Below are positions 1 through 4,218 of a stretch of 4,218 nucleotides of DNA, in pieces (position 1 is the first letter of the stretch; every line of letters begins with the position of its first letter). The stretch is taken from sequence record FJ483840.1, one strand, 5' to 3'. The notes beneath the pieces were generated by a model, which saw nothing but the letters and a program-made list of their open reading frames with translations, was not told where the DNA came from and ran no database searches. The translations under genes and the position numbers were made by a program. Source of the stretch: Escherichia phage Qbeta.

Positions 1-61
1 GGGGGACCCCCCTTAGGGGGTCACCTCACACAGCAGTACTTCACTAAGTATGAGAGGACAT
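1..61 (+). promoter_or_regulatory. 5' untranslated leader of an ssRNA phage genome, with terminal G-run and a C-run/G-run hairpin
   Basis: The sequence begins GGGGGACCCCCCTTAGGGGG. The C-run (7..12) and G-run (16..20) can form a 5-bp hairpin with a UUA loop. An AGAGGA Shine-Dalgarno-like element lies at 53..58, just ahead of the AUG at 62. A terminal 5' G-run is characteristic of Qβ-type genomes. Confidence 0.75.
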
Positions 62-1324
62 ATGCCTAAATTACCACGTGGTCTGCGTTTCGGAGCCGAT
101 AATGAAATTCTTAATGATTTTCAGGAGCTCTGGTTTCCAGACCTCTTTATCGAATCTTCCGACACGCATCCGTGGTACACACTGAAAGGTCGTGTGTTGA
201 ACGCTCATCTTGATGATCGCCTACCTAATGTAGGTGGTCGCCAGGTCAGGCGTACTCCACATCGTGTTACTGTTCCGATTGCCTCTTCAGGCCTTCGTCC
301 GGTAACAACCGTTCAGTATGATCCCGCAGCACTATCGTTCTTATTGAACGCTCGTGTTGATTGGGATTTCGGTAATGGCGATAGTGCGAACCTTGTCATT
401 AATGACTTTTTGTTTCGCACTTCCGCACCTAAGGAGTTCGATTTCTCGAATTCTTTAGTTCCTCGTTATACTCAGGCCTTCTCCGCTTTTAATGCCAAGT
501 ATGGCACTATGATCGGCGAAGGGCTCGAGACTATAAAATATCTCGGGCTGTTACTGCGCAGACTGCGTGAGGGTTACCGCGCTGTTAAACGCGGCGATTT
601 ACGTGCTCTTCGCAGGGTTATCCAGTCTTACCATAATGGTAAGTGGAAGCCGACTACTGCTGGTAATCTCTGGCTTGAATTTCGTTATGGCCTTATGCCT
701 CTCTTCTATGACATCAAAGACGTCATGTTAGATTGGCAGAACCGTCATGATAAAATTCAACGCCTCCTTCGGTTTTCTGTCGGTCACGGTGAGGACTGCG
801 TTGTCGAATTCGACAACTTATATCCAGCCGTTGCTTACTTTAAACTGAAAGGTGAGATTACACTCGAACGCCGTCATCGTCATGGTATATCTTACGCTAA
901 TCGCGAAGGATATGCTGTTTTCGATAACGGTTCCCTTCGGCCTGTGTCCGATTGGAAGGAGCTTGCCACCGCATTCATCAATCCGCATGAAGTTGCTTGG
1001 GAGCTAACTCCCTACAGCTTCGTTGTTGATTGGTTCTTGAATGTCGGTGACATACTTGCTCAACAGGGTCAGCTATATCATAATATCGATATTGTAGACG
1101 GTTTTGACAGACGTGACATCCGGCTCAAATCCTTCACTATAAAAGGTGAACGAAATGGGCGGCCTGTTAACGTTTCTGCTGACCTGTCTGCTGTCGATTT
1201 ATTTTACAGCCGACTCCATACGAGCAGTCTTCCGTTCGCTACACTTGATCTCGATACTACCTTTAGTTCGTATAAACACGTCCTTGATAGTATCTTTTTA
1301 TTAACCCAACGCATTAAGCGTTGA
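62..1324 (+). CDS. A2: Maturation protein A2 (attachment protein; in Qβ also the lysis effector that inhibits MurA)
   Basis: ORF from the AUG at 62 to the TGA at 1322..1324 encodes 420 aa (MPKLPRGLRFGADNEILNDFQELWFPDLFIESSDTHPWYTLKGRV...). I recognise this as near-identical to Qβ A2. It is the first gene, as in all leviviruses. The six-frame track starts the ORF at an upstream in-frame AUG at 50 (MRGH extension); I favour 62 because the AGAGGA element at 53..58 sits immediately upstream of it. Confidence 0.93.
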   Translation: MPKLPRGLRFGADNEILNDFQELWFPDLFIESSDTHPWYTLKGRVLNAHLDDRLPNVGGRQVRRTPHRVTVPIASSGLRPVTTVQYDPAALSFLLNARVDWDFGNGDSANLVINDFLFRTSAPKEFDFSNSLVPRYTQAFSAFNAKYGTMIGEGLETIKYLGLLLRRLREGYRAVKRGDLRALRRVIQSYHNGKWKPTTAGNLWLEFRYGLMPLFYDIKDVMLDWQNRHDKIQRLLRFSVGHGEDCVVEFDNLYPAVAYFKLKGEITLERRHRHGISYANREGYAVFDNGSLRPVSDWKELATAFINPHEVAWELTPYSFVVDWFLNVGDILAQQGQLYHNIDIVDGFDRRDIRLKSFTIKGERNGRPVNVSADLSAVDLFYSRLHTSSLPFATLDLDTTFSSYKHVLDSIFLLTQRIKR

Positions 1325-1344
1325 AACTTTGGGTCAATTTGATC

Positions 1345-1746
1345 ATGGCAAAATTAGAGACTGTTACTTTAAGTAACATCGGGAAAGATGGACAACAAAC
1401 TCTGGTCCTCAACCCGCGTGGGGTAAATCCCACTAACGGTGTTGCCGCGCTTTCACAAGCGGGTGCAGTTCCTGCACTGGAGAAGCGTGTTACCGTTTCG
1501 GTATCCCAGCCTTCTCGCAATCGCAAGAACTACAAGGTCCAGGTTAAGATCCAGAACCCGACCGCTTGCACTGCAAACGGTTCTTGTGACCCATCCGTTA
1601 CTCGCCAGGCATATGCTGACGTGACTTTCTCGTTCACGCAGTATAGTACCGATGAGGAACGAGCTTTTGTTCGTACAGAGCTTATCGCTCTGCTCGCTAG
1701 TCCTCTGCTGATCGATGCTATTGATCAGCTGAATCCAGCGTATTGA
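1345..1746 (+). CDS. cp: Major coat (capsid) protein
   Basis: AUG at 1345 to the TGA at 1744..1746 encodes 133 aa (MAKLETVTLSNIGKDGQQTLVLNPRGVNPTNGVAALSQAGAVPALEKRVTVSVSQPSRNRKNYKVQVKIQNPTACTANGSCDPSVTRQAYADVTFSFTQYSTDEERAFVRTELIALLASPLLIDAIDQLNPAY). This is recognisably the Qβ coat protein, including the two Cys residues (CTANGSC) that form inter-subunit disulfides in Qβ. The track ORF starts at 1321 because it counts a TTG; the real start is the AUG at 1345. Confidence 0.96.
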   Translation: MAKLETVTLSNIGKDGQQTLVLNPRGVNPTNGVAALSQAGAVPALEKRVTVSVSQPSRNRKNYKVQVKIQNPTACTANGSCDPSVTRQAYADVTFSFTQYSTDEERAFVRTELIALLASPLLIDAIDQLNPAY

Positions 1747-2334
1747 ACACTGCTCATTGCCGGTGGTGGCTCAGGGTCAAACCCCGATTCGGTTATCCCG
1801 GATCCACCGATTGATCCGCCGCCAGGGACAGGCAAGTATACCTGTCCCTTCGCAATTTGGTCCCTAGAGGAGGTTTACGAGCCTCCTACTAGGAACCGAC
1901 CGTGGCCTATCTACAATGCTGTCGAACTCCGGCCTCGCAAGTTTGATGTTGCCCTCGAAGATCTTTTGGGCAATACAAATTGGCGCGACTGGGATTCACG
2001 GCTGAGTTATACCACGTTCCGCGGTTGCCGTGGCAATGGTTATATTGACCTCGATGCGACTTATCTTGCTACTGATCAGGCTATGCGTGATCAGAAGTAC
2101 GATATTCGCGAGGGCAAAAAACCTGGTGCTTTCGGTAACATTGAGCGATTCATTTATCTTAAGTCGATAAATGCTTATTGCTCTCTTAGCGATATTGCGG
2201 CCTATCACGCCGATGGTGTGATAGTTGGCTTTTGGCGCGATCCATCTAGTGGTGGTGCCATACCGTTTGACTTCACTAAGTTTGATAAGACTAAATGTCC
2301 TATTCAAGCCGTGATAGTCGTTCCTCGTGCTTAG
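1345..2334 (+). CDS. A1: A1 read-through protein (minor capsid protein; coat extended by about 196 aa through suppression of the coat UGA)
   Basis: The frame stays open after the coat UGA (1744..1746) from 1747 to a TAG at 2332..2334, which is followed immediately by an in-frame TAA at 2335..2337. The extension reads TLLIAGGGSGSNPDSVIPDPPIDPPPGTGKYTCPFAIWSLEEVYEPP...KCPIQAVIVVPRA, which I recognise as the Qβ A1 read-through domain. Total length is 329 aa if UGA is decoded as Trp. Confidence 0.9.
1744..1746 (+). other. Leaky UGA stop codon (programmed translational read-through site separating coat from the A1 extension)
   Basis: UGA in the context UAU-UGA-ACA-CUG, followed by about 585 nt of open in-frame sequence. 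In Qβ this UGA is misread by tRNA-Trp at a few percent frequency. Confidence 0.88.
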
Positions 2335-2348
2335 TAACTAAGGATGAA

Positions 2349-2368
2349 ATGCATGTCTAAGACAGCAT
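2349..2368 (+). promoter_or_regulatory. Coat-protein translational operator hairpin containing the replicase initiation codon
   Basis: AUGCAUGUC-UAA-GACAGCAU forms an 8-bp stem (2349..2357 paired with 2361..2368) with a bulged A at 2353 and a 3-nt UAA loop. The replicase AUG (2353..2355) lies in the 5' arm. This matches the known Qβ operator that coat-protein dimers bind to repress replicase translation. Confidence 0.88.
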
Positions 2369-4122
2369 CTTCGCATAACTCTCTTAGCGCACAATTGCGC
2401 CGAGCTGCGAACACAAGAATTGAGGTAGAAGGTAACCTCGCACTTTCCATTGCCAACGATTTACTATTGGCTTATGGTCAATCGCCATTTAACTCTGAAG
2501 CTGAGTGTATTTCACTCAGTCCGAGATTCGACGGGACCCCGGATGACTTTAGGATAAATTATCTTAAAGCCGAGGTCATGTCGAAGTATGACGATTTCAG
2601 CCTAGGTATTGATACCGAAGCTGCTGCCTGGGAAAAGTTCCTGGCAGCAGAGGCTGAATGTGCTTTAACGAACGCTCGTCTCTATAGGCCTGACTACAGT
2701 GAGGATTTCAATTTCTCACTGGGCGAGTCATGTATTCACATGGCTCGTAGAAAAATAGCCAAGTTAATAGGAGACGCTCCGTCCGTTGAGGGTATGTTGC
2801 GTCACTGCCGTTTTTCCGGTGGTGCCACAACAACGAATAACCGTTCGTACGGTCATCCGTCCTTCAAGTTTGCGCTTCCACAAGCGTGTACGCCTCGGGC
2901 TTTGAAATATGTTTTAGCTCTTAGAGCTTCTACACATTTCGATATCAGAATTTCTGATATTAGCCCTTTTAATAAAGCAGTTACTGTACCTAAGAACAGT
3001 AAAACCGATCGTTGTATTGCTATCGAGCCTGGCTGGAATATGTTTTTTCAACTAGGCATCGGTGGCATTCTACGCGATCGGTTGCGTTGCTGGGGTATCG
3101 ATCTGAATGATCAGACGATAAATCAGCGCCGCGCTCACGAAGGCTCCGTTACTAATAATTTAGCAACGGTTGATCTCTCAGCGGCAAGCGATTCTATATC
3201 TCTTGCTCTCTGTGAGCTCTTACTGCCCCCAGGCTGGTTTGAGGTCCTTATGGACCTCAGATCACCTAAAGGGCGGTTGCCTGACGGTAGTGTTGTTACC
3301 TATGAGAAGATTTCCTCTATGGGTAACGGATACACATTCGAGCTTGAGTCGCTTATCTTTGCTTCTCTTGCTCGTTCCGTTTGTGAGATACTGGACTTAG
3401 ACTCATCTGAGGTCACTGTCTACGGAGACGATATTATCTTACCGTCCTGTGCAGTCCCTGCCCTTCGGGAAGTCTTTAAGTATGTTGGTTTTACAACCAA
3501 TACTAAAAAGACTTTTTCCGAGGGGCCGTTCAGAGAGTCGTGCGGTAAGCACTACTATTCTGGCGTAGATGTTACTCCCTTCTACATACGTCACCGTATA
3601 GTGACCCCTGCCGATTTAATACTGGTTTTGAATAACCTATATCGGTGGGCCACGATTGATGGCGTATGGGATCCTAGGGCCCATCCCGTGTACCTCAAGT
3701 ATCGTAAGTTGCTGCCTAAACAGCTGCAACGTAATACTATACCTGATGGTTACGGTGATGGGGCCCTCGTCGGATCGGTCCTGATCAATCCTTTCGCGAA
3801 AAACCGCGGGTGGATCCGGTACGTACCGGTGATCACGGACCATACAAGGGACCGAGAGCGCGCTGAGTTAGGGTCGTATCTTTACGACCTCTTCTCGCGT
3901 TGTCTCCCGGAAAGTAACGATGGGTTGCCTCTAAGGGGTCCGTCGAGTTGCGATTCTGTAAATCTGTCTGCTGTCGATCAACTTATCTGTAGGAGCAATC
4001 CTACAAAGATAAGTAGATCTACTGGCAAGTTCGATATACAGTATATCGCGTGCAGTAGCCGTGTTCTGGCACCCTACGGGGTCTTCCAGGGCACGAAGGT
4101 TACATCTCTACACGAGGTGTAA
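2353..4122 (+). CDS. rep: RNA-directed RNA polymerase, replicase beta subunit (catalytic subunit)
   Basis: AUG at 2353 to the TAA at 4120..4122 encodes 589 aa (MSKTASSHNSLSAQLRRAANTRIEVEGNLALSIANDLLLAYGQ...). The canonical RdRp catalytic motif YGDD is at 3421..3432 (VTVYGDDIILPS). An AAGGA Shine-Dalgarno-like element lies at 2340..2344. I recognise the protein as the Qβ replicase. The track ORF starts at an in-frame AUG at 2344 (MKC-) that overlaps the SD; 2353 is the accepted start. Confidence 0.95.
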   Translation: MSKTASSHNSLSAQLRRAANTRIEVEGNLALSIANDLLLAYGQSPFNSEAECISLSPRFDGTPDDFRINYLKAEVMSKYDDFSLGIDTEAAAWEKFLAAEAECALTNARLYRPDYSEDFNFSLGESCIHMARRKIAKLIGDAPSVEGMLRHCRFSGGATTTNNRSYGHPSFKFALPQACTPRALKYVLALRASTHFDIRISDISPFNKAVTVPKNSKTDRCIAIEPGWNMFFQLGIGGILRDRLRCWGIDLNDQTINQRRAHEGSVTNNLATVDLSAASDSISLALCELLLPPGWFEVLMDLRSPKGRLPDGSVVTYEKISSMGNGYTFELESLIFASLARSVCEILDLDSSEVTVYGDDIILPSCAVPALREVFKYVGFTTNTKKTFSEGPFRESCGKHYYSGVDVTPFYIRHRIVTPADLILVLNNLYRWATIDGVWDPRAHPVYLKYRKLLPKQLQRNTIPDGYGDGALVGSVLINPFAKNRGWIRYVPVITDHTRDRERAELGSYLYDLFSRCLPESNDGLPLRGPSSCDSVNLSAVDQLICRSNPTKISRSTGKFDIQYIACSSRVLAPYGVFQGTKVTSLHEV

Positions 4123-4218
4123 CCTGGGAGGGCGCCAATATGGCGCCTAATTGTGAATAAATTATCACAATTACTCTTACGAGTGAGAGAGGGATCTGCT
4201 TTGCCCTCTCTCCTCCCA
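4123..4218 (+). promoter_or_regulatory. 3' untranslated region with three stem-loops and terminal CCCA (replicase recognition and initiation region)
   Basis: Hairpin 1: GGCGCC (4131..4136) / GGCGCC (4142..4147), loop AAUAU. Hairpin 2: UAAUUGUGA (4148..4156) / UCACAAUUA (4165..4173), 8-nt A/U-rich loop. Hairpin 3: GAGAGAGGG (4185..4193) / CCCUCUCUC (4204..4212), 10-nt loop AUCUGCUUUG. The genome ends ...CUCCCA-3', the hallmark 3' terminus of Qβ-type phage RNA. Confidence 0.85.

Follow-up and report, generated by a model that had tools for sequence, protein, structure and literature searches.

A complete coliphage Qbeta genome, almost certainly of a natural strain of Qubevirus durum, and its RNA elements

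The stretch of DNA analyzed here (the window, 4218 nt) raises two questions: whether it is a whole phage genome with genuine ends or a portion of something larger, and, if it is a genome, which phage it represents. The initial annotation had taken it for a complete Qβ-type Allolevivirus genome. Our comparisons agree on completeness, and the window is almost certainly the entire plus-strand genome of a naturally occurring coliphage Qbeta strain, species Qubevirus durum. It starts with GGGGGACCCCCC and ends with CTCTCCTCCCA, has the length, 5' G-run, and 3' CCCA end first ascribed to it, and aligns end to end with Qbeta-clade genomes, the termini coinciding. In a nine-genome alignment both termini are the ends of independent complete genomes, and the 3' terminus ...CUCCUCCCA is common to all of the genomes compared. 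The 5' G-run GGGGG is the same in HL4-9, VK, and BR12, and laboratory Qbeta has one G less.

The BLAST comparison with Qβ that had been set beforehand returned a near full-length alignment of high identity. By megablast, HL4-9 (FJ483841) spans 100% of the window at 95.8-95.9% identity (the higher value is from the pairwise alignment), and AB971354 (Qbeta Anc(P1)) aligns full-length at 95.6%. Pairwise identity to BZ1, VK, and BR12 is 92-93%; the six Qbeta-clade genomes share 92-96% nucleotide identity with the window, and M11 and MX1 only ~71%. All 33 phage records with a megablast coverage of at least 80% are Qbeta, Qubevirus durum, or M11. The window belongs to F-specific RNA phage genogroup III. 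The group indicated by the label Allolevivirus stands, while the name does not: the genus is now Qubevirus, and the Qbeta species is Qubevirus durum. The RefSeq "Qbeta" entry NC_001890.1 is identical to MX1 (AF059242), and comparison against it misleads, with an identity of only ~71-75%; suitable references are AB971354, AY099114, and the FJ48384x strain series.

In sequence, A2, coat, and replicase are identical to ACT66729.1, ACT66730.1, and ACT66732.1, respectively, and the record that carries these three is exactly 4218 nt long and belongs to a series of environmental strains. The strain is probably TW18, record FJ483840, as judged from accession order and elimination: FJ483837-39 are DL10, T72, and DL20, FJ483841-44 are HL4-9, BR12, VK, and BZ1, and TW18 is the sole listed GIII strain still unaccounted for.

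Could the window instead be laboratory or reference Qbeta, or a laboratory-evolved derivative? The full-length match to AB971354 at 95.6% and the other full-length laboratory records at 95.0-95.6% among the matches listed speak for this, but they also leave laboratory Qbeta ~4.4% diverged from the window: 172 codons differ, 138 synonymously and 34 non-synonymously, ~79% of the changes fall at third positions, and no frame is disrupted. Moreover, no phage record in the megablast identity table is at least 99% identical to the window, the hog-lagoon isolate HL4-9 is slightly closer to it than laboratory Qbeta, and 25 sites are unique to the window in comparison with these two. Together with the exact proteins of a separate GenBank record of the environmental-strain series, this divergence contradicts a laboratory identity, which we regard as extremely unlikely. 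The identification as Qβ thus holds for the species and is refined to a separate natural lineage. The near equidistance of the window from HL4-9 (95.9%) and Qbeta (95.6%), and the fact that some 300-nt windows favor the former and some the latter, would also fit a mosaic formed by recombination between an HL4-9-like parent and a Qbeta-like one. However, the informative sites (22 shared by the window and HL4-9, 14 by the window and Qbeta, and 13 by HL4-9 and Qbeta) are interleaved genome-wide without forming blocks, and the pattern fits a near-trichotomy with homoplasy, leaving a mosaic very unlikely.

The sequence is written in DNA letters and Qbeta cDNA plasmids exist, so that an origin as part of a larger cellular or plasmid replicon (a cloned cDNA, for example, or an endogenous element) was also weighed. 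We give this practically no weight: megablast against complete E. coli genomes (5,426 genomes; 20,395 E. coli records) and 72,556 plasmids found no match to the window, neither end carries vector sequence, five genomes sequenced independently begin and end exactly where the window does, and the length equals that of the 4218-nt source record. As had been claimed, the window is not an internal piece of a larger replicon and its termini are genuine genome ends. Having set these alternatives aside, we treat the window below as a complete natural Qbeta genome. That the genome is RNA follows by analogy with established Qbeta biology, and identity with records classified in Fiersviridae points to positive-sense ssRNA in a T=3 capsid. 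The host range would likewise be that established for Qbeta, namely, F-piliated E. coli. Related records give E. coli Hfr or F+ strains as hosts.

Table 1. Genes and RNA elements of the 4218-nt window
Feature	Coordinates	Strand	Remarks
5' UTR	1..61	+	five-G start, 5'-terminal hairpin 1-27
A2 maturation (and predicted lysis) gene	62-1324	+	420 aa, stop TGA
Coat gene	1345-1746	+	133 codons, terminates at the UGA below
Coat UGA stop, presumed leaky	1744-1746	+	context UGA-ACA
A1 minor capsid protein, by presumed read-through	1345..2334	+	coat plus 195-residue extension
Predicted replicase translational operator hairpin	2349..2368	+	8-bp stem, bulged A2353, UAA loop
Replicase beta-subunit gene (RNA-dependent RNA polymerase)	2353-4122	+	589 aa, stop TAA
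M-site, putative internal replicase and S1 binding region	2546..2868	+	homology only
Predicted long-range pairing, upstream arm	2973..2980	+	UAAAGCAG, complementary to 4196-4203
Predicted long-range pairing, downstream arm	4196..4203	+	CUGCUUUG, in 3'-terminal hairpin loop
3' UTR	4123..4218	+	four hairpins predicted, closed by stem 4125-4130 / 4213-4218
3'-terminal CCA	4216..4218	+	genome ends CCCA

The gene order A2, coat, A1 read-through, replicase is confirmed by the ORFs and Pfam families (Table 1), and the proteins are indeed Qβ proteins, all of them with full-length matches to Pfam families and to Qbeta PDB structures. Taken with the length, termini, and end-to-end alignment, this agreement goes far beyond chance. 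A2 belongs to Pfam PF03863 (Phage_mat-A; 7e-135), its residues 1-420 match the maturation protein A2 of PDB 5VLZ (E = 1e-287), and its coordinates are the same as those of the annotated CDS in HL4-9, VK, and BR12. A Shine-Dalgarno GAGG precedes it at 53-57. By analogy with established Qbeta biology, A2 would also bring about lysis through MurA. The 5'-terminal hairpin is stable (-21.3 kcal/mol for the 33-nt fold; z = -3.2); the complement of the genome 5' end forms the minus-strand 3' terminus. An A>G change has created an in-frame AUG at 50-52, 12 nt before the canonical A2 start, and this AUG is also found in HL4-9 and VK. Several residues are strain specific, namely, K17Q and I114 of the coat, S121 and C246 of A2, and T418, P445, P519, and N537 of the replicase. 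We consider it quite unlikely that some ribosomes start at AUG 50-52 and add four N-terminal residues (MRGH-) to A2, or that the strain-specific residues confer a distinct phenotype.

The coat protein is a member of Pfam PF01819 (Levi_coat; 2e-61) and matches the Qbeta capsid structures 5KIP and 1QBE with E values of about 1e-81. The UGA at codon 134 is the sole internal stop of the 990-nt A1 frame, which is closed by a double stop, TAG TAA, at 2332-2337. UGA-A is kept in eight of eight Q. durum genomes, and UGA is also present in SP. Occasional read-through of this codon, and its efficiency, are attributed to it here from established Qbeta biology, the mechanism being taken from GenBank annotation notes. 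The A1 read-through domain corresponds to Pfam PF16814 (1e-96), A1 matches the A1 protein structures 3RLC and 3RLK (E = 3e-127), and its coordinates equal those of the annotated CDS in VK and BR12.

The replicase (Pfam PF03431, RNA_replicase_B; 4e-216) matches PDB 3MMP, 4Q7J, and 3AGP over residues 1-588 (E = 0). Its catalytic motifs are intact: both the Asp of TVDLS and YGDD are present, corresponding to Asp273/358/359 (PMC4200798). No alternative-frame ORF of at least 50 aa spans the coat-replicase junction in the window; that is, it holds no separate overlapping lysis gene there. Among 10 alternative-frame or minus-strand ORFs, none is open in all nine genomes, every one of them being interrupted in one or more of M11, MX1, and SP. 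The identification of the window matters only for its interpretation: the two ends are true termini of a genome, the four plus-strand genes are the only real ones, and the noncoding and some of the coding stretches hold RNA-level signals.

The RNA elements are present and conserved, and some show covariation. The bulged A2353 of the operator hairpin is the first base of the replicase AUG; the centroid fold of the hairpin is ((((.((((...)))))))). All six Qbeta-clade strains have this hairpin sequence unchanged, and M11, MX1, and SP show compensatory changes in its outer pairs (AUGC/GCAU to CUGC/GCAG). Established Qbeta knowledge and the annotation "modulates replicase gene" suggest that coat binding at this hairpin shuts off replicase translation. 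The M-site was placed from Qbeta nt 2545-2867 (PMC4176380) and moved by +1 because every CDS coordinate in the window is +1 relative to AB971354. This stretch is 96-97% identical to Qbeta and HL4-9, and binding of S1 to it would be expected from what is established for Qbeta.

The 3'-terminal domain folds with -47.8 kcal/mol (z = -7.6), and none of 200 shuffled sequences is as stable; 12 of the 33 pairs of the nine-genome consensus are kept through two-sided changes. The terminal hairpin is predicted at 4185-4212 with its loop at 4194-4203, and the predicted partner of this loop lies about 1.2 kb upstream. Positions 2971-2981, which contain the upstream arm, do not vary in any of the nine genomes, SP included; at 11 nt, this stretch ties for the third longest invariant run of the genome. 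The three synonymous third positions within it are fixed, as against 23% of replicase third positions that are invariant. The downstream arm is invariant in eight of the nine genomes, HL4-9 having one U>A. The arms thus show invariance and no covariation, and the pairing is a predicted one. No Rfam family matches the window, which reflects the content of the library. As anticipated, the biology of the window is that of the already-known Qbeta system: every known Qbeta gene and regulatory RNA element is present, and nothing is novel.

During infection, the RNA would serve as mRNA for four proteins, as in Qbeta. A2 would act as the single-copy maturation protein and also as the lysis agent, the capsid would be built of coat protein, and occasional read-through of the coat UGA would yield the minor capsid protein A1. 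The replicase beta-subunit would associate with the host factors EF-Tu, EF-Ts, and S1 and, late in infection, coat bound to the hairpin that holds the replicase start codon would repress replicase translation. In the replicase system, the first templating base is the penultimate C of CCA, and the terminal A is a nontemplated addition (PMC4200798). Minus-strand synthesis on the window RNA would accordingly begin de novo with GTP opposite this C, aided by the internal M-site and by the long-range pairing, which would set the 3' hairpin loop beside its upstream arm, and each strand would receive a nontemplated A at its end.

Among known phages, HL4-9 (FJ483841.1; hog lagoon, USA) has the gene order, A2 and coat starts, and termini of the window, and shares with it the in-frame AUG 50-52 and the replicase C terminus VTSLHEV. 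It is 3 nt longer, owing to one additional A1 codon, differs at 15 A2, 2 coat, and 17 replicase residues, and carries, in its 3' loop arm, a U>A that is absent from the window. Laboratory Qbeta (AB971354.1, Anc(P1); also AY099114) has the same architecture, operator hairpin, and long-range arms. Besides the extra 5' G of the window, the 5' hairpin reads CCCCCC-UUA in the window and CCCCC-UUUA in laboratory Qbeta, which also lacks the upstream in-frame AUG; 8 A2, 11 A1 (4 of them in the coat), and 15 replicase residues differ.

M11 (AF052431) and MX1 (AF059242 = NC_001890) represent the other Qubevirus durum lineage. Both share with the window the plan of four genes, read-through at UGA-A, an operator hairpin, and the shape of the 3' domain, and their long-range arms are identical to those of the window, but they have a shorter 5' UTR, one more A2 codon, and a slightly shorter replicase. 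The SP/FI group (Qubevirus faecium, genogroup IV; GQ153934) has the gene order of the window with a read-through protein, and in it the terminal ...CUCCUCCCA and the two long-range arms are conserved. In contrast, its genome (4276 nt) and A2 are longer, and the SP replicase has only 55.5% protein identity to that of the window. More distantly, the maturation, coat, and replicase genes of MS2 (Emesvirus zinderi, formerly Levivirus) are homologous to those of the window, and MS2 has a coat-binding operator at its replicase start. The MS2 replicase aligns to that of the window over only ~1/3 of its length, with ~44% identity. In MS2 the lysis gene is a separate, overlapping one, and there is no read-through protein (PMC8743537).

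The 4218-nt window, which begins with GGGGGACCCCCCTTAGGGGG and ends with CCCTCTCTCCTCCCA, constitutes a complete genome in its own right rather than part of a larger replicon. By megablast against 50,697 phage records, the hog lagoon isolate HL4-9 (FJ483841) covers 100% of the window at 95.8% identity, laboratory Qbeta (Anc(P1), AB971354) aligns full length at 95.6%, strains BZ1, VK, and BR12 at 92 to 93%, and M11 and MX1 at about 75% across the alignable 80%. Global alignment gave identities of 95.9% (HL4-9), 95.6% (AB971354), 92.7% (BZ1), 92.2% (VK), 92.1% (BR12), 71.3% (M11), and 70.6% (MX1), and at both ends the termini of the window are those of these independently determined complete genomes. 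The initial annotation had described a complete Qβ-type genome with genuine ends, and the full coverage by Qbeta-clade genomes and the shared termini bear this out. A cellular or plasmid origin, which would make the window a piece of a larger replicon, was rejected, as neither the complete genomes of E. coli (5,426) nor the plasmids (72,556) searched gave a match.

A comparison with the "Qbeta reference genome" had also been proposed, and here the choice of record matters. The RefSeq entry titled "Enterobacteria phage Qbeta, complete genome" (NC_001890.1) is identical to MX1 AF059242.1 over all 4215 nt, carries MX1p locus tags, and shares only about 71 to 75% identity with true Qbeta-clade genomes, the window included; its use would therefore give a misleadingly low identity, and the proposed comparison holds when made with AB971354. 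The same RefSeq record labels A2 a "head maturation protease."

In sequence, A2, coat protein, and replicase are identical to the GenBank proteins ACT66729.1, ACT66730.1, and ACT66732.1, each on a 4218-nt record, and the accessions that immediately follow, ACT66733-36, belong to FJ483841 (HL4-9). Among the neighboring nucleotide records, FJ483837-39 belong to group II (strains DL10, T72, and DL20), and FJ483841-44 are HL4-9, BR12, VK, and BZ1. The genogroup III strains according to PMC6963950 are Qbeta, BR12, BZ1, VK, TW18, HL4-9, M11, and MX1. From the order of the protein accessions, the flanking accessions, and the fact that TW18 is the sole genogroup III strain in that list left unaccounted for, we infer that the window is most probably Qbeta strain TW18, FJ483840. 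It represents a separate strain of environmental origin that differs from laboratory Qbeta by about 4.4%; the earlier Qβ/Allolevivirus label stands as to clade, not as to reference strain, and the genus has since been renamed Qubevirus (PMC8743537).

Three long reading frames occupy nearly the entire + strand, and with the read-through stretch they follow the gene order given by the initial annotation, whose description holds at its stated coordinates. Each of the proteins matches its expected Pfam family and, full length, a solved Qbeta structure. The replicase retains YGDD and, within TVDLS, the catalytic aspartate, residues that PMC4200798 numbers Asp273/358/359. Relative to laboratory Qbeta, the window has 138 synonymous and 34 nonsynonymous codon differences, third codon positions account for about 79% of the changes, and no frame is disrupted, a pattern characteristic of functional genes that purifying selection has maintained in a natural lineage.

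Genes and longest invariant runs of the window, with predicted RNA folds
Feature	Coordinates	Strand	Description
5' hairpin	1-27		Predicted stable fold, -21.3 kcal/mol, z = -3.2
A2	62-1324	+	Reading frame from Shine-Dalgarno-preceded ATG; Phage_mat-A, 7e-135; PDB 5VLZ full length
Invariant run	1329-1339		11 nt, TTGGGTCAATT; A2-coat intergenic region, just before coat start
Coat	1345-1746	+	Ends in TGA; Levi_coat, 2e-61; PDB 5KIP and 1QBE full length
A1 extension	1747-2331	+	195 open in-frame codons after coat TGA, then TAG TAA; Read-through, 1e-96; PDB 3RLC
Predicted operator fold	2349-2368		8-bp stem, bulged A from the replicase AUG, UAA loop
Replicase	2353-4122	+	RNA_replicase_B, 4e-216; PDB 3MMP, 4Q7J, and 3AGP full length
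Invariant run	3034-3047		14 nt, TGGAATATGTTTTT; within replicase gene
Invariant run	3661-3677		17 nt, GGCGTATGGGATCCTAG; within replicase gene

Residues S121 and C246 of A2 and I114 of the coat protein are unique to the window among the strains compared, and T418, P445, P519, and N537 of the replicase differ from all four of those strains; coat Q17 differs from three of the four, and in BZ1 the coat lysines are differently arranged around Q17. An in-frame ATG at positions 50 to 52 precedes the A2 start by 12 nt and would lengthen the protein by MRGH-. Compared with laboratory Qbeta, an A>G change creates this ATG, which is common to HL4-9 and VK, is absent from Qbeta, BZ1, and BR12, and has no Shine-Dalgarno sequence upstream, GAGG at 53-57 serving AUG62. 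Two protein clusters contain bacterial entries. The 90%-identity cluster of the replicase (window 2353-4119) also includes many bacterial EF-Ts proteins, likely bridged by the engineered EF-Ts/EF-Tu/linker/replicase fusion chain of PDB 3AGP, and this grouping looks like a clustering artifact rather than biology. The coat cluster (window 1345-1743) includes TNU90119.1, a 137-amino-acid "hypothetical protein, partial [Lactococcus cremoris]" from a contig of 428 nt, whose presence is best explained by contamination of a bacterial assembly with Qbeta or a Qbeta-VLP.

Further genes, whether minus-strand or in alternative frames, were rejected: none of the 10 such ORFs of at least 50 amino acids stays open throughout all nine genomes aligned, one or more of M11, MX1, and the group IV phage SP interrupting each. 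This supports the earlier claim that the four + strand genes alone are meaningful. A recombinant mosaic was likewise rejected, since the informative sites for the three possible groupings (22, 14, and 13) are interleaved along the genome without block structure; neither sliding identity nor informative-site patterns gave a sign of recombination.

The predicted fold around the replicase start is shaped like the coat-protein operator of Qbeta; its sequence is identical in the six Qbeta-clade strains, and its outer pairs carry compensatory changes in M11, MX1, and SP. At the 5' end (positions 1 to 12), the window starts with five G and has CCCCCC-UUA, as in the four FJ48384x strains, versus four G and CCCCC-UUUA in laboratory Qbeta. 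This could reflect genuine variation among strains in the 5' hairpin, or else an end-determination artifact common to that sequencing series.

The 96-nt 3' untranslated region is predicted to fold into four hairpins with a closing stem in which the 3' terminus takes part (-47.8 kcal/mol; z = -7.6; 0 of 200 shuffles equally stable), and in the nine-genome consensus of the 3' domain, 12 of the 33 pairs persist although both partners have changed. Within the terminal hairpin loop, CUGCUUUG at 4196-4203 is complementary to UAAAGCAG at 2973-2980. A long-range pairing of 8 nt with a partner roughly 1200 nt upstream was reportedly described by Klovins et al. in 1998. Here, what points to such a pairing is solely the complementarity together with unusual conservation: the upstream arm lies within an 11-nt run that does not vary across the nine genomes, SP included. 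By length this run ties for third among such runs in the genome, and it spans three synonymous third positions, where replicase third positions overall are only 23% invariant. As both arms are invariant, they show no covariation. In HL4-9 the equivalent loop reads CUGCUUAG (other genomes, CUGCUUUG), which would lose one pair with UAAAGCAG and is not compensated in the upstream arm; this is either tolerated variation at the helix edge or a sequencing error in the record. The three tabulated runs are the longest invariant ones across all nine Qubevirus genomes, otherwise 55 to 70% identical, and suggest RNA-level constraint besides that on protein. A search of Rfam at E values up to 1 matched no family, a result that counts neither for nor against these levivirus elements, which have no match in that library.

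The life cycle would be that of Qbeta, verified in the window at the level of its sequence prerequisites. Lysis by Qbeta is mediated by A2, and the phage depends on the F-pilus; an MS2-type lysis gene is absent from the window, as the ORF breakage across nine genomes shows. The + strand would act as mRNA, with A1 made by read-through of the coat UGA (per GenBank annotation notes) and operator-bound coat protein repressing replicase translation. The replicase β subunit would assemble with EF-Tu, EF-Ts, and S1, recognize the M-site via S1 (PMC4176380), start synthesis de novo by pairing GTP with the penultimate C of the 3' CCA, and then add a nontemplated A (PMC4200798). The window carries all the testable features that define Qubevirus durum; its genome is already in the public databases and is that of one of the most thoroughly studied viruses.
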